The notes under the pieces are model-generated. The model was not told the origin of the DNA and searched no databases. It was given only the letters and a program-made list of their open reading frames with translations. Positions 4,278 to 58,722 of a stretch of DNA of 64,000 nucleotides are shown here, in pieces (the first letter of the stretch is position 1; each line of letters begins with the position of its first letter). A program made the position numbers and the translations under genes. Source of the DNA: an uncultured Gammaproteobacteria bacterium (GTDB lineage: Bacteria; Patescibacteriota; Microgenomatia; Woykebacterales; RBG-16-39-9b); NCBI GenBank assembly GCA_964367355.1, contig CAYIWY010000004.1, forward strand, positions 35,976 to 99,975. The letters run 5' to 3'.

Positions 4278-5669
<1,392 letters not shown>

Positions 5670-5745
5670 TCACGCGAGAGTCTTTCAGAAACCTGTGATT
5701 TCTGAATTACGAAGCGGGTTATAACTTGTACTACTTTTCCTTTGT

Positions 5746-6138
5746 TCATTTTAAAAAACCTCCATTTATTAATATCGGCATTACGTGAGTTTTAACGTGG
5801 GAGCCTAACTCTAAAGTTGAATCAGTACTATACCAGATTGCTTCTTCGATTTCTTTACCATCGGGTTTTATATTCTCACCGATATTTGCCGAAAAAATAT
5901 AAGTGTCCCACTCTTCCAGAGTTTCCGGGTTTTTGTAAAGATAGTTGGCAACAAGCTTAATTGATGAGTCATCAACTTCAGTACTCAGTTCTTCCATAAC
6001 TTCACGAGTTAAGGTATCTTTAGTCGTTTCGCCTTCTTCCCCCCGACCTCCTGGAAGTTTGTAAACTGTTTCATCGACCTTCCGAACAAGAAGAACTTTA
6101 TTATCTTTTATGTGTGTTAAGTAACTTCGTCGTTTCAT
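5746..6138 (-). CDS. NUDIX hydrolase
   Basis: Nudix box GGRGEEGETTKDTLTREVMEELS. It sits 2 nt downstream of atpG on the same strand. Confidence 0.85.
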   Translation of the reverse strand: MKRRSYLTHIKDNKVLLVRKVDETVYKLPGGRGEEGETTKDTLTREVMEELSTEVDDSSIKLVANYLYKNPETLEEWDTYIFSANIGENIKPDGKEIEEAIWYSTDSTLELGSHVKTHVMPILINGGFLK

Positions 6139-6139
6139 A

Positions 6140-6997
6140 TTAATTTAATGCTATCGCTGCTGTAGAGATATCCAAAATTTCATTGGTAATATTGGCTTGT
6201 CTTACTTGGTTATAAGCGAGAGTCAGATCATCGACCAATTCAGAAGCATTATCCGAAGCATTTTTCATGGCCACCATTCGAGCCGAGTGTTCACTAGCCG
6301 AAGAATCTAAAAGAATTTGGTATATTTCCATCAATATATAATGTGGCAAAATAGCTTCCAAAACCAAGTCGGCACTTGGTTCAAAGAGATATTCATCAAC
6401 AGTCAAATCAGAGCTGTCAGAAAGTTTATTTATTATTTCTAGATCAATTATCGGAAAAAGTTGGCGAATAATTGCCTCTTGTTTCAGAGTTGAGTGAAAC
6501 TGGGTGTAGATCACGTGAATTTTATCAAATTCGTTACTTAAAAAAGCTTCGGTTAGAAAACGGGTAATTGTCCCAGCAAATTCCAAGGTTGGTTTGTCTA
6601 AAAGTTCAAAATCAGCTGCTAGTGGTTTGGCAGAGCGGCTGACAAAAACCTGGCCTTTTTTACCAAGTGTAATAAATGAAACATTTCCAGTTACGTCAAG
6701 AGATTTTTTGAAAAGATTAGAATTTAATGAACCACACAAACCGCGGTTGGTAGTAATCAACAGTATTCCTTGTTTTTCGTTTTTTTCTCGAGAAAGTAAA
6801 GGGTGAGAAGTCAAATCAATTTTAGTTGAAATATGTTGCAACACGTCATTCATCAAGGCCGAGTAGCGTCGCCCTTTAGTTGCTTGATCTTGGGCGCGGC
6901 GCATTTTTGCAGCTGAAACCATCTCCATGGCTTTGGTCACCTTGGAAGTATTTTTAATGGATTTAATTCTTTGTCTTAGTTCTTTAGTTCCTGCCAT
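6140..6997 (-). CDS. atpG: F1F0 ATP synthase subunit gamma
   Basis: N-terminal MAGTKELRQRIKSIKNTSKVTKAMEMVSAAKMRRAQ and conserved C-terminal helix. Confidence 0.9.
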   Translation of the reverse strand: MAGTKELRQRIKSIKNTSKVTKAMEMVSAAKMRRAQDQATKGRRYSALMNDVLQHISTKIDLTSHPLLSREKNEKQGILLITTNRGLCGSLNSNLFKKSLDVTGNVSFITLGKKGQVFVSRSAKPLAADFELLDKPTLEFAGTITRFLTEAFLSNEFDKIHVIYTQFHSTLKQEAIIRQLFPIIDLEIINKLSDSSDLTVDEYLFEPSADLVLEAILPHYILMEIYQILLDSSASEHSARMVAMKNASDNASELVDDLTLAYNQVRQANITNEILDISTAAIALN

Positions 6998-7000
6998 AAG

Positions 7001-8497
7001 TTACGCCTTAAATGATTTTTTGAAATCAACTGTAAATTTCTCTAACTCTTTTGTAATTTTCTCGGTTAAAACTTTCTCGTCCTTAATTTGTTTGAGTAGA
7101 TTTTTGCCTTTGGTGATTAAACTATCCAGGTATTTCTCCTGGAAAGAGCTGAGATTTTCAATTGCGATATCGTCTAGAAAACCATTAGTAACGGCCCAAA
7201 TTAAAACCACTTGCTGCTCGACTGGGATTGGGTTGTATTGGGGTTGTTTGAGAATTTCGACAATTCTACGACCGCGGTCAAGTTGGTTTTTTGTCGCTTC
7301 GTCTAGGTCTGAACCAAACTGGGCGAAAGCTTCGAGGCTGCGGAACTGTGCCAAATCAAGCCGCAGAGTTCCGGCAACAGATTTCATTGCCTTGATTTGG
7401 GCTGATCCTCCAACCCTGGAAACCGAGAGACCAACGTTGACAGCCGGGCGATTGCCTGCGTTAAACATATCCGATTCCAAGTAAATTTGTCCGTCGGTGA
7501 TAGAGATTACATTGGTTGGGATATAAGCTGAGACATCTCCGGCTTGAGTTTCGATAATTGGAAGAGCTGTCAAAGAACCGCCGCCATTATCCTTACTTAA
7601 ACGAGCTGCGCGTTCGAGTAGGCGAGAGTGGAGGTAAAAAATATCACCTGGGTAAGCTTCTCGACCAGAAGGTCGACGCAAAAGCAGGGAAATTTGACGG
7701 TAAGCCCAAGCGTGTTTTGAGAGATCGTCATAAATTGCTAAAGCATCTCTGCCTTGTTCCATAAAATACTCACCGATAGCACAGCCTGCATAGGGCGCTA
7801 GAAATTGCAATGATGCTGAATCCGAGGCTGAAGCTGCAACAACGATTGTATGATTCATTGCCCCATATTTTTCTAGAGTGTCGATGATTTGGGCAATTTT
7901 TGAAGTTTTTTGTCCGATAGCTACATAGATACAAATTACGCCGGAATCTTTTTGGTTAATGATTGTGTCAATGGTGATAGCTGTTTTACCAGTCCCCCGA
8001 TCACCAATGATCAACTCTCGTTGTCCACGCCCAATTGGAATCATACTATCAATTGCTTTAATACCGGTCTGTAGTGGGGTATTAACCGATTGTCTAGTAA
8101 TTACACCCGGAGCAATTTTCTCAATCGGATTGTCTTTGGTAGCTTTAAGTGGACCTTTTCCATCAATTGGGTTACCAAGCGGATCGACGACTCGACCGAT
8201 TAAACTTTCCCCAACTGGTATTGATAGAATTTTCCCGGTTGTTTCAACTTGATCACCTTCCTTTAGAATTTTGTAATCACCAAAAACAACAATACCAACT
8301 TGATCTTCTTCTAAGTTAAGTGCTAAACCAAAAAGTTCATAGGGAAGTTTGACTAGTTCGTTATAAGCAACTTCAGATAGACCTTCAACTTTGATAACTC
8401 CGTCCCCAATTTCAATTATTTTACCGACATTCTTTTTTGTCGTTGTTGTTTTTAATGATTCAATTTCCTTTTTAATTGTTTCTGCTAGTTTACTCAT
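7001..8497 (-). CDS. atpA: F1F0 ATP synthase subunit alpha
   Basis: Walker [11 protein letters not shown]; 498 aa. Confidence 0.95.
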
Positions 8498-19351: not shown

Positions 19352-19789
19352 ATTGCAGATGCGGAACGAGTACGCTACTTCTTCCAACCCATCTTCACTG
19401 TGCACCCTACTCGAATTTGGGTTTGAAAGCATGGCGGGGGAGTACTAGAATTGTGCGCGCACACCCCTCTAGAATTTGCGTTGTCTGGGACGCAAACCTG
19501 CCGTACTCTCCCCATTGGCAGCTTTTTTGAGGGTTTGACTAGTGAACGACTCACATATTCCGATTTTGTCGGAACGTTTTTTTTGTCACTAGCGAGGGAA
19601 CCCTGCCTGACCTCTCACCACAACACTCCACCGCAACCAACTTAATCAATCACGGCAAAACAAACAACAAAGTTATAGGGGAGGTGCCAAGAACCACGGG
19701 AACCCGGTACCCTGTCCAAGTGTCATAAACCCGGCAAATCCGAAGTTCACCAGGCGCTGACTTTTGCCGCATCTCTCCCCAGAGGGCAC

Positions 19790-38983: not shown

Positions 38984-40123
38984 TTAGATTGTAAATCGAT
39001 CCTCAAGTGTATTAGCACCGGGCATGGAAAGTACTTCCGCATTTGCTGCTTTTACTCTCGGGTCGTCCAAATCTGGGGTGACACCGATGAAAAATTGGGC
39101 AACACCGGATGGGAGTATTGTCTGGGCCATTGTGGTCGTTTTGTCGACCTCGTGTTTGTCGAAACAACCAAGAACCTGAGCCAGTAATCCAACGATGTTT
39201 TCCGGCTCTGAAAATTCAAAACCAACCGCACCGCCGTTTAAGTCCCCGAGAACCCGGACAAGCCAGTCACTGATTGCAAGAACTTTATCCAAGGTTTCCT
39301 TTTCGATCATCTCCCGGGAACGCTTCATCTCCGCTGCAATTTGAGCAGTGTTTCCGTTCTTTATCATTTGCGATAAATCAGCAAAAACATCTGCTAAAGT
39401 ATCTACCAATTTGGGTCCGTCAGGATGGCTGGTAATGATTTCCGATACCACGTCCTGCTGACCTAGACTGCGGATTGCTCCAAAAGCTTGAAGTTTGGCA
39501 GGTGCGCCAGCAACCTTAAGCATCTGAGTTACATCGATGTTGGATCTTTGCCAGACCATACCGACTGCGACTGCCAATATCATTGGCAAGAGTTGTGACC
39601 CTTTAGTGAGAGCGTCGTGTTCCGCAATCGTTCTTTCGGCCAATTTTGCCTTTTTGGCCTCAAGCAGGTTAACCATCCAGGTTTTCCACCTAGGATTTAG
39701 CAATTCCTGTGGGAAACCAAAGACGATTGATTGTCCGTGTAATGACCGCACATTTGGCGCGATCATAAAATGGACAAAACCGGTGTCCACCCTAAACACT
39801 TTTAAGGTTTGCCACTCTAGTACGTTCCCGATTGGGAAATCGCGCACCTGCTGGATTGAGCTTCCATGCAACCATAAAGTATTGGGACAGGCATGGACGA
39901 CTAAACGTCGCATCGTGGGGGCAACATCTGCTAGCGGTAGGATCGAAAAAATGACAACGTCGGATTTGGCAATAACTTCTGCATTGCTCAAACCATCCGG
40001 GTCACTAATGTCTGATCCAATTACTTCAAGACCTGCTTCTCTGAACAGGGGCTCGTAAATGTTTCGAGCCATCTTTCCTTGATTACCGATGATTCCAACA
40101 ACTTTGGCAGGAAACATCCCCAA
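38984..40123 (-). CDS. prephenate/arogenate dehydrogenase-like NAD(P)-binding oxidoreductase
   Basis: N-terminal Rossmann GIIGNQGKMA and a TyrA-like C-terminal domain. Noticeably higher GC than its neighbours. Confidence 0.5.
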   Translation of the reverse strand: MGMFPAKVVGIIGNQGKMARNIYEPLFREAGLEVIGSDISDPDGLSNAEVIAKSDVVIFSILPLADVAPTMRRLVVHACPNTLWLHGSSIQQVRDFPIGNVLEWQTLKVFRVDTGFVHFMIAPNVRSLHGQSIVFGFPQELLNPRWKTWMVNLLEAKKAKLAERTIAEHDALTKGSQLLPMILAVAVGMVWQRSNIDVTQMLKVAGAPAKLQAFGAIRSLGQQDVVSEIITSHPDGPKLVDTLADVFADLSQMIKNGNTAQIAAEMKRSREMIEKETLDKVLAISDWLVRVLGDLNGGAVGFEFSEPENIVGLLAQVLGCFDKHEVDKTTTMAQTILPSGVAQFFIGVTPDLDDPRVKAANAEVLSMPGANTLEDRFTI

Positions 40124-46107: not shown

Positions 46108-46261
46108 CGAAGCCGTTCGCTACTAACAGAGAGGAACTCCTTTGGGGTTGTGGTGAGTGAAAGTAACCACCTGTAAAGCAATTTACAGCCATTTTCCCCT
46201 AAGCAAATCTCTCAAGAGGTTTCCTTAGGACAAGTAACTCCGAATTAATTCGGAGTTTTTT

Positions 46262-46370
46262 GTTGGCTGAAATGGATAATCTGAGGCTAAAAAGCTATGG
46301 GGGGACAACGAGATTGAGATAGAACCCTTACTAGACAGTATGATCCTACTATTTAATCAACTAAGAGGTA
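46262..46370. repeat. tRNA-His-derived repeat, copy L (contains a degenerate tRNA-His 3' end ATGGGGGGACAACGAGATTGAGATAGAACCC)
   Basis: Aligns to 47038-47133 and 47985-48035 and to the authentic tRNA-His 3' end TGGGGGGGAGTATGGGACTTGAACCC. Confidence 0.6.
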
Positions 46371-46476
46371 CAAACTTAGTTCTGTAAGGTTAGTTTTTGT
46401 TGGTAGAAAGTTTCAAAATACTCGACCAGAGCAAAGCCACCCTTCAGCAAGCTTTTGATTATGCTACAATTTCCTT

Positions 46477-46710
46477 GTGATTAAATTTACTGAGCACGTA
46501 GAAACTAGACTTGAAGAAAGAAATATTACTAAGGAACAAATTGGTGAAGCCATCGGAAGTCCAGACGTTGTTTTACCAGCAAGGGCAAATCGTTCGATTG
46601 CAATTAAGAAGTTTGAAAATAATTTTCTCAAAGTAGTGTTTATTAAAGATCAAGGTGATATAATCGTGATCACTACTCACTGGATTAGTAAATTGAAACT
46701 TAAGGAGTAA
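46477..46710 (+). CDS. DUF4258 family toxin-like protein
   Basis: FTEHVETRLEERNITKEQIGEAIGSPD...IAIKKF...VVF pattern; paired with a DUF2283 gene. Confidence 0.6.
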   Translation: MIKFTEHVETRLEERNITKEQIGEAIGSPDVVLPARANRSIAIKKFENNFLKVVFIKDQGDIIVITTHWISKLKLKE

Positions 46711-46712
46711 AT

Positions 46713-46940
46713 ATGAACGTTCGTTACGACCCAAAAGCTGATGCAGCTTACATTTATTTAACTGAAAATAAAGGTAGTTCCTCTAATAGTAAAACTAAAG
46801 TGGCTGAGACCAAGGAACTTTCGGATGAAATTTTTGTGGACTACGACAGCGAAGGCCGCCCACTTGGCATTGAAATAATTGGTGTTAAAGATAGAGTACC
46901 CTCTAAAACCCTTCATTTTTTTGAAACCCAAACACGCTAG
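46713..46940 (+). CDS. DUF2283 family protein (antitoxin-like partner)
   Basis: MNVRYDPKADAAYIYL...FVDYDSEGRPLGIEII, the DUF2283 signature. Confidence 0.65.
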   Translation: MNVRYDPKADAAYIYLTENKGSSSNSKTKVAETKELSDEIFVDYDSEGRPLGIEIIGVKDRVPSKTLHFFETQTR

Positions 46941-47133
46941 TTTTTTTAGGCCACGAAGTGGTCGCAGAATGCTTTAGCGATCATTAGATTTCTTAATCGC
47001 AGAGAGCAAAGCGAACTATTGGTTAAAATTGGTTATTATGAGGCTAAAAATCTATAGTGGGACAACGCTCTTGAGATAGAACCCTTACTAAACAGTATAG
47101 TCTTACTATTTAATCAATTAAGATATTCAAACG
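46936..47133. repeat. tRNA-locus-derived repeat, copy M (CCACGAAGTGGTCGCAG ... TTGGTTAAAATTGG ... ATAGTGGGACAACGCTCTTGAGATAGAACCC ...)
   Basis: Its 5' part matches 47896-47990. Its 3' part matches copy L, including the degenerate tRNA-His 3' end. Confidence 0.6.
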
Positions 47134-47166
47134 TAATTCTTTAAAGTTTGGTATAATTGTTTCAAC

Positions 47167-47463
47167 ATGAAAACTGAAACTATCGATATAGACCAAATTA
47201 AAGAAAAGGTTTTGCCAATACTCAAAGAGGTAGGTGTCACTCGCAGTTCTATCTTTGGTTCTTTTGCTGCAGGTGAAAACACTAAGGACAGTGATATCGA
47301 TATTCTGATTGAGCCGCCTGAAAGTATGACGTTATTTGGTTTTGCTGGTCTAAAGTTGGAGTTGGAAGAAGCACTCGGTCGGGAAGTTGATTTGGTAGAG
47401 TATTCTGCTATTAAACCTCGTATTAAACAGCAATTACTAAGTACTCAAATTCCCATTCTATGA
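47167..47463 (+). CDS. nucleotidyltransferase (MNT/MntA-type antitoxin)
   Basis: GSFAAGENTKDSDIDILIE: a minimal nucleotidyltransferase fold with the GS...DxD motif. Confidence 0.85.
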   Translation: MKTETIDIDQIKEKVLPILKEVGVTRSSIFGSFAAGENTKDSDIDILIEPPESMTLFGFAGLKLELEEALGREVDLVEYSAIKPRIKQQLLSTQIPIL

Positions 47464-47813
47464 AAGAAGAAAAAAGAGACATGGGTCTTTATCTGGAAGA
47501 TGTTTTTGAAAGTATTAAGCAGATACAAGAATATACTGATGGTATTGAAGAGGATGAGTTTTATACTAATCAGTTAATCCAAGACGCAGTGGCGAGAAGA
47601 TTTGCAATTATTGGCGAGGGAGTTAAACACGTTCCTGAGTATTATCGAGAAAAACACCCGGAAACTAATTGGAAAAGTATTGCTGGTATGCGTGACATTC
47701 TTGTCCACGAATATTTTGAAGTCAATCTCAAAAGAATTTGGAATACAATTCAAGAAGAACTATCCACTTTTAAAGAGCAGATTAAGAACTTACCCGAAAT
47801 GTCTAATAGTTAA
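47460..47813 (+). CDS. HEPN-domain toxin (HepT/DUF86)
   Basis: Rx4HxY motif in MRDILVHEY. Overlaps the MNT gene by 4 nt. Confidence 0.85.
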   Translation: MKEEKRDMGLYLEDVFESIKQIQEYTDGIEEDEFYTNQLIQDAVARRFAIIGEGVKHVPEYYREKHPETNWKSIAGMRDILVHEYFEVNLKRIWNTIQEELSTFKEQIKNLPEMSNS

Positions 47814-47895
47814 GCAACTACTTAAAAACCTCCCACACTTAAGTAAATCTTGAATAAAGGTTTTCTTAGGACAAGTAACTAGCTGAAAGGCTAGT

Positions 47896-48035
47896 TTTTT
47901 TAGTCCACGAAGTGGTCGCAGAACGCTTTATCGATCATTAGATTTCTTAACCGCAGAGAGCAAAGCGAACTATTGGCTAAAATGGTTAAATCTGAGGCTA
48001 AAAAACGATGGGGGGAGCTTGGTATCAAAAAGGGT
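47896..48035. repeat. tRNA-locus-derived repeat, copy R, abutting tRNA-His
   Basis: CCACGAAGTGGTCGCAGAACGCTTTATCGATCATTAGATTTCTTAACCGCAGAGAGCAAAGCGAACTATTGGCTAAAATGG... reads directly into the tRNA-His 3' end. Confidence 0.6.
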
Positions 48036-48036
48036 A

Positions 48037-48113
48037 CTGGGGGGGAGTATGGGACTTGAACCCATGACATGTAGTTCCACAAACTACCGCTCTACCAACT
48101 GAGCTAACTCCCC
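48037..48113 (-). tRNA. tRNA-His (anticodon GTG) with encoded G-1 and CCA
   Basis: Reverse complement folds as GGGGAGT/ACTCCCC acceptor, anticodon loop TTGTGGA, an extra 5' G pairing with discriminator C. Confidence 0.85.
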
Positions 48114-54279: not shown

Positions 54280-56007
54280 TTAGTAGCTTTTGTTTCGGAT
54301 TTCTCGACCGGTTACTGACTCAAGTATGAAGTCAGCTAAAGCATTTGTTGAAAAGTCGTAATTGTTGCGAAGTACAAATGTATTAGTTATAGAGTAAAGA
54401 GGGACAACAGGAACATCAGCAACAATTTCTTCAACTAAGCTTTCGAGTAGTTTTTTCCTTTCGGTTGGAACAAAACTTTTGTTTATCTTGTCAATTTCTT
54501 GATCGACTTTTGAATTCGAATAACTTAGAAGATTGGAATCTGCCTCTGTGCGGAAAATGCCGTCAATGTATTCTCCACCGTCATTAGCCGTCGGACCTGC
54601 AATAAAGGCTGCTGCTTTTCCGGAAAACAGATCTTTGACTAGTGAACCGAAGGTTTCAACGGTTATAACGCTTGTTTTAATATCGGAGTCTGCTAGTTCT
54701 GCAGAAACAGCCTTAGCAACCTCTTCACGGTCGGCTGTAGTATAAATATCGAACTCAAGATTTGCTGAATTGGCATCTTTAAGTAGTGCCTTTGCCTTGA
54801 CTGTGTCCTTAACACTGTCTTGAATTTCGCTGTTGTAGCCGACAATTGATTTAGTAATGAATTGGTTGGCTTTTTTTCCAGAGACGGATGCGACTTTGAT
54901 GACATTGTTATTATCGATAGAAAGTTTAACTGCTTCTCTTACGTTTTTTTGTAACAAAGGGTTTGGCTTACCATTCAATTTTGTGGCAGCAAAATTGATC
55001 AATAACATGACAACTCTAGGTTCGTCTTCCTGGCGGATTTGAAATTCATCCCCCAAATTTGTTTGCTTTGTTTCTACCCGTGCATAGTCAATTTCCTTAT
55101 TTTTTAACGCTTTAAGCATGTCGTCGTCAGTTTCATAAACGATAAATTTAGCCGTCTTAAGCTTTGGTTTTTCACCCCAGTAGCCATCAAACCGCTCAAC
55201 TTCAGCTTTTTTATCTTTTGTGAAACGCACGATTTTAAACGGGCCGGTTCCGGAAACCTTATCCAAACCATCGCGTTCAATTTGCTTTTTGGAAAGAATG
55301 TAAACGTCAGTAATACGATTTAGTAATATTGGGTCCGGTTTACTTGTAATTATATCCACGGTTTTGTCGTCAATTATTCTTATTTCTTTAATTGTTGAAA
55401 CTGAGTTTGTTGAGGGCCAAGATTTTTCTTCATTGTCGGCGTTTTCTAAGACCTGGTCAAATGAGTATTTAACATCATCAACCGTTAGTATGTCCCCAGA
55501 CTGGAATTTAATTCCAGTACGAATGGTGAACCGCCAGGTTGAAGTATCCGGGTTAGTCCATTTGGTTGCAATTGCGGGAACGATACTCGATCCTCGAACC
55601 TTAGTCAGAGCTTCAAATACCGCGTCATTAAAATTATTAGCGTCAACTGTGGGTGGATTTGAACTTGTTGGATATATTCCTGACAATGTTGTCCATCCTA
55701 AGTTAATTTGTTCAGTTTCCAATCCAGTCACGACCCTGGCTTCTTTGGGTTTTTCCTTAAGGAAAAAGATATAAGCCAGGAAAGCCCCAATAGATAGAAT
55801 TAGAAGAAAAATAATAATTTTTGAGAAATTTCCAAAAGAAAAATTTGCTTTTTGAGGATTAATTGTGCTCACTTGAGCGCTGGCTGATGTTTGTTCTTCA
55901 GGCATTGTTATAATTATAGCAAATTTTGAAAATGTAAAGCAATGGACACAAATTTCCGATACGGAGGGTTTGCCAACGCAGGGGACGGTAGACAAAAAAG
56001 CGTACAA
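54280..56007 (-). CDS. ABC transporter substrate-binding protein, family 5 (peptide/nickel type), membrane-anchored
   Basis: SBP_bac_5 architecture. The real start is probably the internal MPEEQTSAS, just before the TM anchor. Confidence 0.8.
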   Translation of the reverse strand: MYAFLSTVPCVGKPSVSEICVHCFTFSKFAIIITMPEEQTSASAQVSTINPQKANFSFGNFSKIIIFLLILSIGAFLAYIFFLKEKPKEARVVTGLETEQINLGWTTLSGIYPTSSNPPTVDANNFNDAVFEALTKVRGSSIVPAIATKWTNPDTSTWRFTIRTGIKFQSGDILTVDDVKYSFDQVLENADNEEKSWPSTNSVSTIKEIRIIDDKTVDIITSKPDPILLNRITDVYILSKKQIERDGLDKVSGTGPFKIVRFTKDKKAEVERFDGYWGEKPKLKTAKFIVYETDDDMLKALKNKEIDYARVETKQTNLGDEFQIRQEDEPRVVMLLINFAATKLNGKPNPLLQKNVREAVKLSIDNNNVIKVASVSGKKANQFITKSIVGYNSEIQDSVKDTVKAKALLKDANSANLEFDIYTTADREEVAKAVSAELADSDIKTSVITVETFGSLVKDLFSGKAAAFIAGPTANDGGEYIDGIFRTEADSNLLSYSNSKVDQEIDKINKSFVPTERKKLLESLVEEIVADVPVVPLYSITNTFVLRNNYDFSTNALADFILESVTGREIRNKSY

Positions 56008-56040
56008 AAAAACCTCGCGCGAAGCGAGGCTTTTTGTAAT
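55996..56040 (-). terminator. rho-independent terminator after the csp gene
   Basis: CCTCGCTTCGCGCGAGG hairpin followed by TTTTTTT on the minus strand. Confidence 0.7.
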
Positions 56041-56056
56041 GCATTGTTTGACCTAA

Positions 56057-56254: not shown

Positions 56255-56405
56255 AGTTTTATTGTGTAGATTTTTTATTAAAAGCTACTAATACCTCCTT
56301 TCATTTTTGATTATACTCTATTTGCTACTAATTAGCTAATTGAGACTAATTGGCACTGTTATTTTGCAGACAACACACCCAATTTTTCGTACCTCGGAAA
56401 TAGCA

Positions 56406-56535
56406 GGATTCTCACGTAGGTTCGAGTCAACTCCAGAAACTAAAAAAGAAACTTGAGATGGACCCAACTGACTTCTTCTGGCTGCCAGACTAAGTCGCTT
56501 CGCGCCTTGCGACCACTTCGTGGGCTAAGGATTCG
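56406..56535. repeat. 130-nt direct repeat copy 1, containing a copy of the tRNA-Gln 3' end TGGCTGCCAGACTA
   Basis: Segments X (GGATTCTCACGTAGGTTCGA...), T (TGGCTGCCAGACTA) and Y (AGTCGCTTCGCGCCTTGCGACCACTTCGTGGGCTAA) align to 58446-58583. Confidence 0.85.
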
Positions 56536-56750
56536 AAAATCTAATCTTGTCTATGACAAACCAGAAAGTATGTTCGAAGTTTCAAACACACTTTCTGGCT
56601 GGCGAAGTTGCCCGCAGGTGGAACCTCATTGAACCTAGTCTCCACAATACCTACGAAAAACTAATGAATCTGGGTTTTATCTTCCACAACGGACAAGTCA
56701 CTAAAATACTACAAGAAAAAAGAGAATAAAAATGATTTAAAAATAACTCC

Positions 56751-58397
56751 TTGAAATTCTTTCTTTTAGTTGTAATAATATTACAAATGCCTGAAAGTTC
56801 ACCCATTTCTACACCTGTAGTAGAAAATTTTAACACATCCTTATCACAAACAGTTAAAACTCCAACGAAACCACGAAAGCCGATCCTTATTATATTGGTC
56901 TTAATATTATTATTTGTGGGTGCGGCAGTTTTTGCATTCATTTGGAATCAGAGGGGAGATCAGTTAAGAGTGCTTGATAATGGAAACTCGTCTCTTCTAA
57001 AAGACCGAGTGTTTGTACGCTACGAGGAAAATGGTGCGTACGAGAAAGACTCTAGTACAGGTGAGGTTAAAAAAATAACAGATGCTAAAGGTAATGTTAA
57101 CAGCATTCGCAAAAAGACGTTTGAAATAACTTTGGAAAAAAATGGCACAAAGCATCCCGTAATCCTAGACGATAAAACTATAGAGTTTGGTGCAACTACG
57201 GACAATAAACTTTATTCGATATCATGCAGTGTTGCGGAAGATGGAATGGTAGGTGCAGATAACGCTAGTTTTACAGTCCAGTTCTATGACCAAGATGGCA
57301 ATAAAACTAAACAAGCAAATTGGAAAGAACAGGATACAACGAGACCTGCTGATTTAGGAAATGACTGCCAGAGCAACTATTTTAGTATTCGCTCAAATCG
57401 GGTTGATTTTGCTGCACGTAACTACGGGCGTGAATTAGTTGATGATCTTAACTACAAGCTTGTCTTTGTTAAGAATGATGGTTCAAAACAAGATGTGGAT
57501 ATTGAGACTACGGCAGACATCAATATTCCATTGGGTCCAACCCCAGATAAAAAATTATTTCTCTACAATCGAATTAGTGCGAAAAGATTGCCCGATGGCT
57601 GTGGTGGTCCGATAACTGAGTTACCGTACAAGGTAGTAGACTTTTCAGGTCCAATTAACGAGCTGCATGCTGTCGATCTCTTGGCTAAAAAAGACACTCT
57701 CATCGGAACAGAGAAATCCTTTTCCGCGACAGATCATCAGATTAATTTAAGCCACAGAGGTGATTTTTCAAAAGATAGCGCTAGGTATTACCTAGTTGAT
57801 GTAGGATCTGTCGGCCACGGTGGCTGTTCTGATGGTAATATTGTACCAATACGTATACCTTATATTGATCTTAAAACTAACAAATTAGAAACAATTTCTT
57901 CACCTGATGGGAAAGAGTACTCCAACTATTGTTTCAATGAAAATGTAAATTACATTTTAGAATCTGGGGTTGTAGATGACTATGACGATGCAACTCCAGC
58001 CAAAACTCCAGCAGCACCTACAGTTTTAAATATCATGAATAGCACTGTTTACCAAGATAACAATCTTACTGATGGATTTGGCTGTGAAAGTTGGCTGCCA
58101 AACACTTTTATGAAGTTAGATACAACTGCCGACGAAACAGAAGAAGAACACACTTATTCCCTTCTTGGTTTCAGCACCTTCGATCCAGCTACTAAAGCTA
58201 TTCAGAAAACTACCTTGAAAACGCCTGTATTGTACAAGTCGGTGTTATTCCTTAAGGGTAGTTTTATCTCTAGTATTCAAAAAACTGGTGCTGCTAATGT
58301 TGGCTATATTAATAGAGATAGGGTGGAAAAGACTGTCCTATTCAACGCCAAAACCGGAGAAATCCAGGAAGTAGATTACGCGCAACTTGTGTTGTGA
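56751..58397 (+). CDS. large secreted/membrane-anchored hypothetical protein (Cys/Asp-rich, beta-rich)
   Basis: 548-aa ORF with an N-terminal TM (PILIILVLILLFVGAAVFAFIW). The start is ambiguous between TTG 56751 and ATG 56787. Confidence 0.6.
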   Translation: MKFFLLVVIILQMPESSPISTPVVENFNTSLSQTVKTPTKPRKPILIILVLILLFVGAAVFAFIWNQRGDQLRVLDNGNSSLLKDRVFVRYEENGAYEKDSSTGEVKKITDAKGNVNSIRKKTFEITLEKNGTKHPVILDDKTIEFGATTDNKLYSISCSVAEDGMVGADNASFTVQFYDQDGNKTKQANWKEQDTTRPADLGNDCQSNYFSIRSNRVDFAARNYGRELVDDLNYKLVFVKNDGSKQDVDIETTADINIPLGPTPDKKLFLYNRISAKRLPDGCGGPITELPYKVVDFSGPINELHAVDLLAKKDTLIGTEKSFSATDHQINLSHRGDFSKDSARYYLVDVGSVGHGGCSDGNIVPIRIPYIDLKTNKLETISSPDGKEYSNYCFNENVNYILESGVVDDYDDATPAKTPAAPTVLNIMNSTVYQDNNLTDGFGCESWLPNTFMKLDTTADETEEEHTYSLLGFSTFDPATKAIQKTTLKTPVLYKSVLFLKGSFISSIQKTGAANVGYINRDRVEKTVLFNAKTGEIQEVDYAQLVL

Positions 58398-58445
58398 TCC
58401 TGTTATTAAAACTCCTAAATTGTTCCGAAAAACCCCACTATTTTT

Positions 58446-58583
58446 TGGCTGCCAGACTAAGTCGCTTCGCGCCTTGCGACCACTTCGTGGGCTAAGGATT
58501 CTCACGTAGGTTCGAATCAGCTCTAGAAACTAGAAAAAGACACTTGAGATAAACTCAATTGCCTTTTTCTGGCTGCCAGACTA
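58446..58583. repeat. 130-nt direct repeat copy 2 (T-Y-X-T order), running into tRNA-Gln
   Basis: See copy 1. The final T segment is the genuine 3' end of tRNA-Gln. Confidence 0.85.
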
Positions 58584-58643
58584 GGATTCGAACCTAGATA
58601 ACGGGATCCAAATTCCCGTGTCCTACCATTAGACGATCTGGCA
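58570..58643 (-). tRNA. tRNA-Gln (anticodon TTG), U1-A72
   Basis: Reverse complement TGCCAGATCGTCTAATGGTAGGACACGGGAATTTGGATCCCGTTATCTAGGTTCGAATCCTAGTCTGGCAGCCA. Confidence 0.85.
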
Positions 58644-58722
58644 ACGCGTGCTCAGTATAGCATTTTAGGCTTAGAGAATCCAGATAATTTCTGTAACCTC
58701 TTTTTAAGACTATTTCCTTGAC

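Follow-up and report, generated by a model that had tools for sequence, protein, structure and literature searches.

Organization of the tRNA-Gln locus

We analyzed a 64,000-nt window of contig CAYIWY010000004.1 (positions 35,976 to 99,975 of the forward strand), from an uncultured groundwater Saccharibacterium, in which an intact tRNA-Gln(UUG) gene (58570-58643, minus strand; identified with ARAGORN and scoring 61.6 bits against the Rfam tRNA model) is adjoined by an array of short repeated modules and a single gene encoding a 536-aa protein, hereafter the cargo gene. The units of this array are bounded by copies of the tRNA 3' end, and their number and content vary among sister strains. Saccharibacteria and other bacteria of the candidate phyla radiation (CPR) have tiny genomes, and gene exchange in them is little understood.

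A preliminary description of the region, drawn up without database searches, had reported two direct repeats sharing three segments (T, Y and X) in permuted order, and alignment of the repeats bears this out: the first copy reads X-T-Y and the second T-Y-X-T, the last T being, as had been proposed, the true end of tRNA-Gln. T, TGGCTGCCAGACTA on the plus strand and TAGTCTGGCAGCCA on the tRNA strand, comprises the final 14 nt of the tRNA, encoded CCA included. It occurs exactly three times in the window (at 56479, 58446 and 58570), a count of at least three being reached in none of 100 shuffles, and no further copy with up to two mismatches exists in the 64 kb. A shorter near-copy, TGGCTGCCAAAC (11/12 matching), lies at 58092-58103 inside the cargo open reading frame (ORF), at a conserved SWLPNTF motif; it is probably a coincidence, since about 0.3 such matches are expected by chance in the window.

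Together, T and Y form a 59-nt repeat of 98% identity (56476-56534 versus 58443-58501), in which Y accounts for 42 nt rather than the 35 nt first assigned to it. On the tRNA strand the Y-T junction reads GAATCCTTAG, about 35 nt containing two short hairpins, and then TAGTCTGGCAGCCA; in Y1, the copy lying directly upstream of T1, these are a CCACGAAGTGG hairpin and a TCGC...GCGA hairpin, followed by CT. To judge from its letters, Y-T looks like the segment of a tRNA that runs from the T loop to the CCA end, interrupted after TAG by a two-hairpin insert of about 35 nt. We rejected Y and Y-T as a structured RNA or a tRNA-like 3' half, as both strands fold no better than shuffled sequence (z of +0.3 to +1.25 for Y) and match no Rfam family.

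X measures 67 or 68 nt (56412-56478 versus 58502-58569) and is 86-91% identical between its two copies, the alignment falling into two parts (56405-56447 versus 58495-58537, 91%; 56443-56492 versus 58534-58583, 86%) with about 90% identity over 49 nt. The T-arm-like stretch noted earlier in X is real: the module begins with an inverted copy of the tRNA-Gln T arm, GTAGGTTCGAATC, which in the second copy (58507-58518) is 100% complementary to tRNA positions 58585-58596. On the tRNA strand, each copy of T has Y before it and an A-run after it; beyond the A-run comes X, the spacer of the cargo gene or a further module, Z, which occupies the position directly downstream of tRNA-Gln in two sister alleles (A and B, below). 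The plus-strand order is thus cspA flank, T''Y'' X1, T1 Y1 Z*, T* cargo region (56610-58445), T2 Y2 X2 and T3-tRNA-Gln, with the following features:

56365-56411, minus strand: T''Y'', the most distal, decayed unit boundary; its Y-like stretch ends in AGGATTC
56412-56478, minus strand: X1, diverged copy of X with the inverted T-arm copy at its start and a decayed hairpin
56479-56492, minus strand: T1, exact copy of the last 14 nt of tRNA-Gln
56493-56534, minus strand: Y1, 42-nt module, homologous to modules of the tRNA-His array described below
56535-56595, minus strand: Z*, 61-nt diverged copy (about 70%) of Z
56596-56609, minus strand: T*, decayed T, TGGCTGGCGAAGTT, 9 of 14 positions matching
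56610-56786, plus strand: cargo upstream region, with the best promoter-like site in the area
56787-58397, plus strand: cargo gene, 536-aa protein
58398-58445, no strand assigned: spacer from the cargo stop codon to T2, ending in a T-run as do all sequences preceding T copies
58446-58459, minus strand: T2, exact copy of the tRNA-Gln 3' end
58460-58501, minus strand: Y2, identical to Y1
58502-58569, minus strand: X2, with the inverted T-arm copy (58506-58518) and a strong hairpin between A-run and T-run
58570-58643, minus strand: tRNA-Gln(UUG), with T3 at 58570-58583

Two of these boundaries are decayed. T'' (56365-56373) is TGCAGACAA, a T with a 5-nt deletion, and T''Y'' is collinear with Ta-Y' of allele B, at an alignment score reached by 3 of 1000 shuffles. 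Z* together with T* was recognized by aligning Z+T to 56535-56640 (score 25; shuffle mean 3.5 and maximum 14, with none of 1000 shuffles reaching it). Given these two decayed T copies, the interval of about 2 kb that had been described as one insertion does hold extra DNA next to the tRNA, yet it is part of a longer array and not one simple insert. A pseudo-tRNA-Gln extending beyond T* (56596-56680) was considered and rejected, since local and global alignments to the real tRNA do no better than shuffles and no Rfam match was obtained at E≤10; beyond T*, only a ATTGAACCTAG stretch (56630-56640) aligns to the tRNA-Gln T arm. A 60-aa ORF overlapping this region (56547-56729) has no Pfam or PHROG match.

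The modules directly following the tRNA CCA end are predicted to fold stably. The X2 hairpin has a minimum free energy of -23.1 kcal/mol (z of -3.6; none of 200 shuffles is equally stable) and the Z hairpin, in the same position in the sister alleles, a z of -2.8; the X1 hairpin is decayed and folds no better than shuffles (z of +0.79). A simple terminator scan flagged neither the X2 nor the Z hairpin. By its layout, the X2 hairpin is terminator-like, and it could serve the tRNA on one strand and the convergent cargo gene on the other.

Structural variation among sister strains

Sister contigs were found by scanning metagenomes for the T-Y junction and by looking up the exact CspA protein, and they belong to the same groundwater project and site. 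The arrangement of the window recurs in a 261-kb ENA contig (L016/L025), and a contig from another sample (L023) matches it at 100% identity across the left repeat and into the cargo upstream region. Misassembly, whereby the repeats would have joined the cargo gene to the tRNA spuriously, is extremely improbable in the light of these contigs. It is true that Logan contigs, built from de Bruijn graphs, stop exactly 30 nt inside the repeats (L005 corresponds to 56505-58475, and L017-L020 end in T-Y), but the repeats, at no more than 59 nt and 98% identity, are shorter than reads, two long contigs on record (261 kb and 265 kb) show the same arrangement, and L023 spans the left repeat in an independent sample.

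Two further alleles lack the cargo gene. Allele B, seen in two independent contigs (L021 and L022, the latter the same as L015), reads flank-T-Y'-X-T-Y-Z-T-tRNA-Gln, and allele A, seen in one (L024), reads flank-T-Y-Z-T-tRNA-Gln; from cspA to tRNA-Gln they span about 230-350 nt. The search for related genomes with the site but without the gene, suggested at the outset, thus found what it sought: all of these contigs hold the cspA flank and the tRNA-Gln 3' end, with one or two small units left between them. The difference between A and B is exactly one T-bounded unit (Y'+X+T, 122 nt), and the window strain is collinear with allele B as far as T*, where 1,974 extra nt (cargo, T2, Y2 and X2) precede the tRNA. 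T* marks the left boundary of this extra DNA, because alleles A and B run into the tRNA body at that point. Over the three alleles T is exact in six different sequence contexts with variable neighbours, and T-Y is identical everywhere, Y1 matching both Y2 and the Y of alleles A and B at 100%. In allele B, X is closer to the tRNA-proximal X2 (98.5% identity) than to X1, its positional equivalent (about 90%). Units without an ORF are uniform in size, at about 105-110 nt.

Within the population the tRNA itself also varies. The anticodon of tRNA-Gln is CTG in L021 and TTG in L022, two otherwise identical allele-B contigs, and a Logan contig (L026) starts immediately behind the anticodon, as a variant bubble would lead one to expect. 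The population seems to be polymorphic for an anticodon switch.

Between the window and the sister strains the flank is about 97% identical, yet mosaic. The SBP_bac_5 gene beside cspA (54948-56047) ranges from 74% to 100% identity per 100 nt when compared with L021, which points to frequent homologous recombination with divergent alleles. This bears on a reading that dispenses with site-specific recombination, in which the gene-bearing haplotype was imported, or kept, by homologous recombination after natural transformation, anchored by cspA and SBP_bac_5 on one side and by tRNA-Gln and the histidine-kinase gene on the other, and T, Y, X and Z are old passive sequence that offers homology for unequal crossing-over or slippage. 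Whole-haplotype replacement fits the divergence of X1 (about 10%) and Z* (about 30%) against about 3% in the rest of the flank, as it does the native composition of the cargo region and the failure to find a recombinase (below). A type IV pilus operon, moreover, is encoded next to the locus, and in Saccharibacteria the type IV pilus apparatus is linked to DNA uptake. What such a history leaves unexplained is why there are multiple copies of exactly the last 14 nt of the tRNA, each with a T-loop remnant, and why the same design recurs at tRNA-His; the A/B difference, besides, is bounded by 14 nt of identity, a poor substrate for RecA, although slippage could still produce it. We regard this explanation as less probable than not, while giving it serious weight.

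The cargo protein and its distribution

As initially described, the array contains a single gene, but its product was taken to be 548 aa, starting at a TTG (56751); the most likely start is the ATG at 56787, which yields 536 aa and corresponds to database protein P0001. A promoter-like site with an extended TG element (TTGAAA-17-AATAAT, 56751-56779) ends 8 nt before this ATG, and no Shine-Dalgarno sequence is visible, which suggests a leaderless or near-leaderless mRNA.

The protein has no sequence match in Pfam, PHROG or PDB, and its family is tiny, with 7 homologues in 5.8 billion clusters and 12 clusters recovered by a profile search of 1.84 billion representatives; the single homologue with a source name is labelled Candidatus Saccharibacteria. 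The family alignment shows a variable N-terminal tail (about 33 aa), one hydrophobic helix and six invariant cysteines. The AlphaFold2 model, built on a shallow alignment, has a mean predicted local distance difference test (pLDDT) score of 73.9 and a predicted template-modeling (pTM) score of 0.70, and it places a transmembrane helix at about residues 35-55 ahead of an all-beta ectodomain. Its best Foldseek matches in PDB are beta-propellers of the TolB and 6-phosphogluconolactonase types, with probability 1.0 and TM scores of at most 0.3, so that the propeller-like assignment is tentative despite the high probability. Judging by the alignment and the model, the protein is anchored in the membrane by its N-terminus and exposed as an extracellular, all-beta and tentatively propeller-like domain, and not freely secreted as proposed earlier. 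A role in host interaction is speculation.

The preliminary description had set its islet against the alternative of a core gene, conserved at this position in all relatives, and the distribution of the family speaks for the former. Homologues with 40-64% identity sit in four unrelated contexts in other Saccharibacteria: between tmk and an HhH-GPD gene (L001); downstream of tRNA-Glu, after genes for a phage-type S24 repressor, Bro-N and DUF2130 (L002); about 2.5 kb downstream of tRNA-Glu (L003/L004); and after an HD-domain gene (L006). No tRNA-end direct repeats of at least 10 nt are present at the tRNA-Glu genes of L002 and L003. In L002 the tRNA-Glu 5' half is duplicated (4635-4666) 125 nt upstream of the intact gene, and the stretch downstream of tRNA-Glu in which the cargo homologue follows the phage-type genes (5450-7892) resembles a prophage remnant; a 42-nt, 74% repeat flanking that homologue was discounted, as it resembles a terminator-type hairpin and lacks statistical significance.

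More distant relatives are informative on the other side of the tRNA. In the GTDB species set, the downstream block of histidine-kinase and pilus genes is shared with only two genomes, L007 (kinase 85%) and L008 (66%), in both of which synteny breaks just upstream of the kinase and neither the cargo gene nor tRNA-Gln is found at that site. Synteny starts exactly at the histidine-kinase gene (window 58714; L007:9948, L008:5862). At the far end of the pilus operon, L008 carries a tRNA-Gln(UUG) and L007 a tRNA-Gln(CUG), and in L008 the SBP/HK1 and pilus blocks are inverted with respect to each other. This points to a rearrangement breakpoint at the tRNA (window 58644-58722). When the kinase and response-regulator proteins were looked up by exact match in search of an empty site, every contig retrieved either came from the same strain or ended within the tRNA. 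L007, the closest relative at species level, also has truncated copies of three tRNA genes (Val, Phe and Gln) next to the complete ones (4617-4640, 5230-5249, 19403-19421 and about 19585-19615), and a fragment resembling tRNA-Gln(UUG) lies in antisense a short way downstream of its tRNA-Gln(CUG), so that tRNA genes seem to be general points of recombination and rearrangement in this clade.

These observations weigh on the possibility that the cargo gene is ancestral at the site and was lost from the sister strains by deletion between T copies. The decayed T* and the highly diverged Z* imply that the cargo junction is old, the composition of the region is native, and deletion between short direct repeats is an easy event. 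Set against this, L007 and L008 have neither the gene nor the tRNA at this site, the homologues occupy four unrelated contexts, and loss of an ancestral gene does not predict the extra T-bounded unit between gene and tRNA. We consider ancestral presence unlikely.

A second array at tRNA-His

A BLAST of the modules against the window brought to light a second array of the same design at 46217-48113, which ends in tRNA-His (48038-48113, minus strand) and lies less than 12 kb from the first. Its features are:

about 46217-46402, 46936-47159 and 47858-48037, no strand assigned: repeat blocks (127 nt at 89%, 133 nt at 80%)
46477-46940, plus strand: DUF4258+DUF2283 pair (Pfam on called genes)
47167-47813, plus strand: MNT+HepT pair (Pfam on called genes)

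By their domain content both gene pairs are of the toxin-antitoxin type. Pseudo tRNA-His 3' ends, TGGGGGGA, are found at 46298 and 48009, and three of the five G6 runs in the window fall within this array. The link between the two arrays is a 16-mer of the Y core, CCACGAAGTGGTCGCA, which has four copies in the 64 kb, two at tRNA-Gln and two beside tRNA-His (46951 and 47905), a number reached in none of 100 shuffles. Aligned with one another, the four Y-type modules share a TAG-hairpin-hairpin-TAG layout and show one compensatory pair change; as they represent only three distinct sequences, this covariation is anecdotal. The other tRNA genes of the window (Arg, Lys, Arg and Gly) have no copies of their 3' ends in it, and a 379-aa ORF (38984-40123) between tRNA-Arg(TCT) and tRNA-Lys(CTT) has no Pfam or PHROG match and no tRNA-end repeats around it.

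Structured modules of this kind raise the question of integron-like cassettes, in which Y would fold as a single-stranded DNA site comparable to attC, the tRNA 3' end would be the primary acceptor, and cassettes of any size, including ones without an ORF, would be captured next to tRNA genes. The confinement of the Y-core 16-mer to two tRNA-linked arrays, the preserved two-hairpin layout with its compensatory change, the uniform small units and the variable cassette order among strains all agree with such a scheme. It is opposed by the folding of Y, no better than shuffles, by the promoter-like site that the cargo gene has of its own, and by the searches for integron components: there is no integron integrase beside either array, the tRNA-Gln array being bordered by cspA and the histidine kinase with no intI or attI, and no attC-type RYYYAAC...GTTRRRY cores are present. 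With the anecdotal nature of the covariation added, we hold hairpin-dependent cassettes to be very unlikely, and the array is not an integron, having neither IntI nor attC features. Also improbable is a hitherto undescribed system of Saccharibacteria, in which cassettes would be served by a recombinase in trans, for which tRNA 3' ends would be acceptors and the module of about 35 nt (TAG-CCACGAAGTGG-TCGC...GCGA-TAG) would mark the boundaries.

Origin of the arrays

The region downstream of tRNA-Gln may best be viewed as an integration hotspot holding a tandem stack of small inserts. In this reading, to which we assign a probability of about one half, site-specific integration at the tRNA 3' end occurred repeatedly and left integrase-less units resembling cis-mobilizable elements (CIMEs), the 536-aa gene being the payload of one of them. 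The locus has several hallmarks of integrative elements: an intact tRNA with the array starting from its last base, direct repeats of the tRNA 3' end (three exact and two decayed), and presence/absence polymorphism in relatives, though sites without the gene keep one or two units. As had been anticipated, the islet lacks an integrase: no recombinase was found in the cargo unit or in the 20 window ORFs tested, so that it is not a self-sufficient integrative element. Its att-like bounds without recombination or transfer genes are those of a CIME.

Mechanistically, a recombinase supplied in trans, encoded outside the unit, would recombine the T of the tRNA, as the presumed recombination core, with a T on incoming circular DNA. 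The incoming copy would regenerate the intact tRNA, whose CCA would now be followed at once by a new terminator hairpin (X or Z), and the older T, with its adjacent Y, would be pushed further away. Repeated rounds would give the order tRNA, X2 Y2 T2, cargo T*, Z* Y1 T1, X1 Y'' T'', flank, in which the oldest distal boundaries (T'', T* and the X1 hairpin) have decayed. Units could be gained or lost among strains through the T (14 nt) or T-Y (59 nt) copies, by the action of the trans-acting recombinase, by slippage or by RecA. The recombinase origin of the T duplications, the order of events and present-day mobility are what we infer from the arrangement.

Several observations agree with this reading. 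The exactness of T amid variable neighbours, the single T-bounded unit by which A and B differ, and the collinearity of the window strain with allele B up to T* all speak for it, as do published analogues that include units without an integrase (below). Hairpins that are strong at the functional tRNA but lost in X1, together with decayed distal T copies, fit the prediction of sequential insertion. The tRNA-His array, with toxin-antitoxin-type pairs that are typical island cargo and with the shared Y-core 16-mer, supports it, as do the tiny size of the cargo family in its differing contexts and the partial tRNA copies of L007. The cargo unit and the ORF-less units, having no recombinase, would be CIME-like passengers or collapsed remnants.

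A number of findings weigh against it. Besides the recombinase missing from the ORFs tested, scans of viral contigs for Y, for the T-Y junction and for the tRNA 3' half gave no matches, and no integrase-bearing element with a Y-T-X junction turned up in these viral contigs, in a single metagenome scan or in the comparison loci retrieved. The naive attB site (flank-T-tRNA, with zero units) is not among the alleles recovered, and the cargo region shows no GC anomaly. At only 105-110 nt, the strikingly uniform ORF-less units are hard to square with an origin as remnants of larger elements, and also with circular intermediates. T1-Y1 is pristine between decayed segments, for which gene conversion or selection must also be invoked, and the mosaic SBP_bac_5 flank means that ordinary homologous recombination is clearly active here. 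Finally, the Y-like module at tRNA-His has another position and orientation relative to the tRNA-end copy than at tRNA-Gln, so a fixed arm within a single attP design does not suffice to account for Y.

Other classes of repeat were compared with the array. Repetitive extragenic palindromes (REP) and miniature inverted-repeat transposable elements (MITE) were considered for the Y core of about 35 nt; it has four copies in the 64 kb, all in the two tRNA arrays, and no transposase was seen among the window ORFs tested. A diversity-generating retroelement was rejected, the repeats being intergenic, the mismatches between X1 and X2 not A-specific and the tested ORFs free of reverse transcriptase, and readings as clustered regularly interspaced short palindromic repeats (CRISPR) or as a tandem duplication were rejected from the sequence pattern.

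On this interpretation, single genes would be added and removed beside a tRNA within one natural population, in units bounded by copies of the tRNA end and with no resident integrase found, the cargo being the sort of surface protein that could mediate contact with host cells. To judge from the two arrays and the partial tRNA copies of L007, micro-islands linked to tRNA genes may commonly give rise to differences between strains in this lineage, much as in Prochlorococcus and Dehalococcoides. In cultivated Saccharibacteria, genetic tools could draw on the locus for a candidate neutral insertion site and a candidate att core. Should the trans-acting cassette system be real, it would do for ultra-small genomes what integrons do elsewhere, keeping surface proteins and toxin-antitoxin pairs in stock beside several tRNA genes.

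Comparison with known systems

With integrons the arrays share ordered small cassettes, some of them without an ORF, a repeated structured site, additions apparently at one fixed end and, in the tRNA-His array, toxin-antitoxin cassettes like those of chromosomal integrons. They differ in the absence of IntI and of attI and attC features, in a core that is the tRNA 3' end, and in a cargo gene with its own promoter-like site.

CIMEs, together with site-specific accretion, were reportedly described by Pavlovic, Bellanger and colleagues in streptococcal integrative and conjugative elements (ICEs). The likeness lies in the att-type direct repeats, in the lack of recombination and transfer genes, and in a tandem arrangement that would allow joint excision, in accordance with the concept as summarized in PMC5704250 and PMC3146451. 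The difference is that no cognate ICE, or integrative and mobilizable element (IME), with the same core was found in the viral contigs, the one metagenome scan or the loci retrieved.

Among the closest in design are the ssrA islands of Dehalococcoides, which lie in tandem between 20-bp copies of the ssrA 3' end, each copy adjoined by a conserved motif, and fifteen of which have no integration module and were read as cis-mobilizable elements (PMC3146451). Both systems consist of tandem islands downstream of a small RNA gene, with a 3'-end repeat of 20 bp there and 14 bp here, and with a conserved motif, unlike the gene, directly upstream of the repeat (15 bp there, Y here); both have an inferred insertion point in the T-loop/3' region, a number of units that varies between strains, and units devoid of an integrase. 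The target is nevertheless transfer-messenger RNA (tmRNA) in Dehalococcoides and tRNA in our Saccharibacterium, and the Dehalococcoides islands measure several kb to tens of kb, many with a serine-recombinase module (dsiB), whereas the units described here measure 0.1-1.9 kb, hold at most one gene and come with no recombinase found.

The tRNA islands and tycheposons of Prochlorococcus grow by successive integrations that push older elements inward, leaving remnants and partial tRNAs scattered (bioRxiv 10.1101/2020.12.28.424599). Common to both cases are a streamlined genome, variable islands next to tRNA genes, elements flanked by partial tRNAs, displacement of older elements from the tRNA, degenerate remnants, and subpopulations that differ by small sets of genes. 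Tycheposons, in contrast, carry tyrosine recombinases and replication modules, none of which was seen here, their units are far larger, and lineage and habitat differ. By analogy with these systems, the locus is best read as an integrase-less, tRNA-linked micro-island of a kind known from Dehalococcoides and Prochlorococcus, and what sets it apart is its miniature size, its presence in Saccharibacteria, its polymorphism at the population level and a hairpin module that the tRNA-Gln and tRNA-His arrays have in common.

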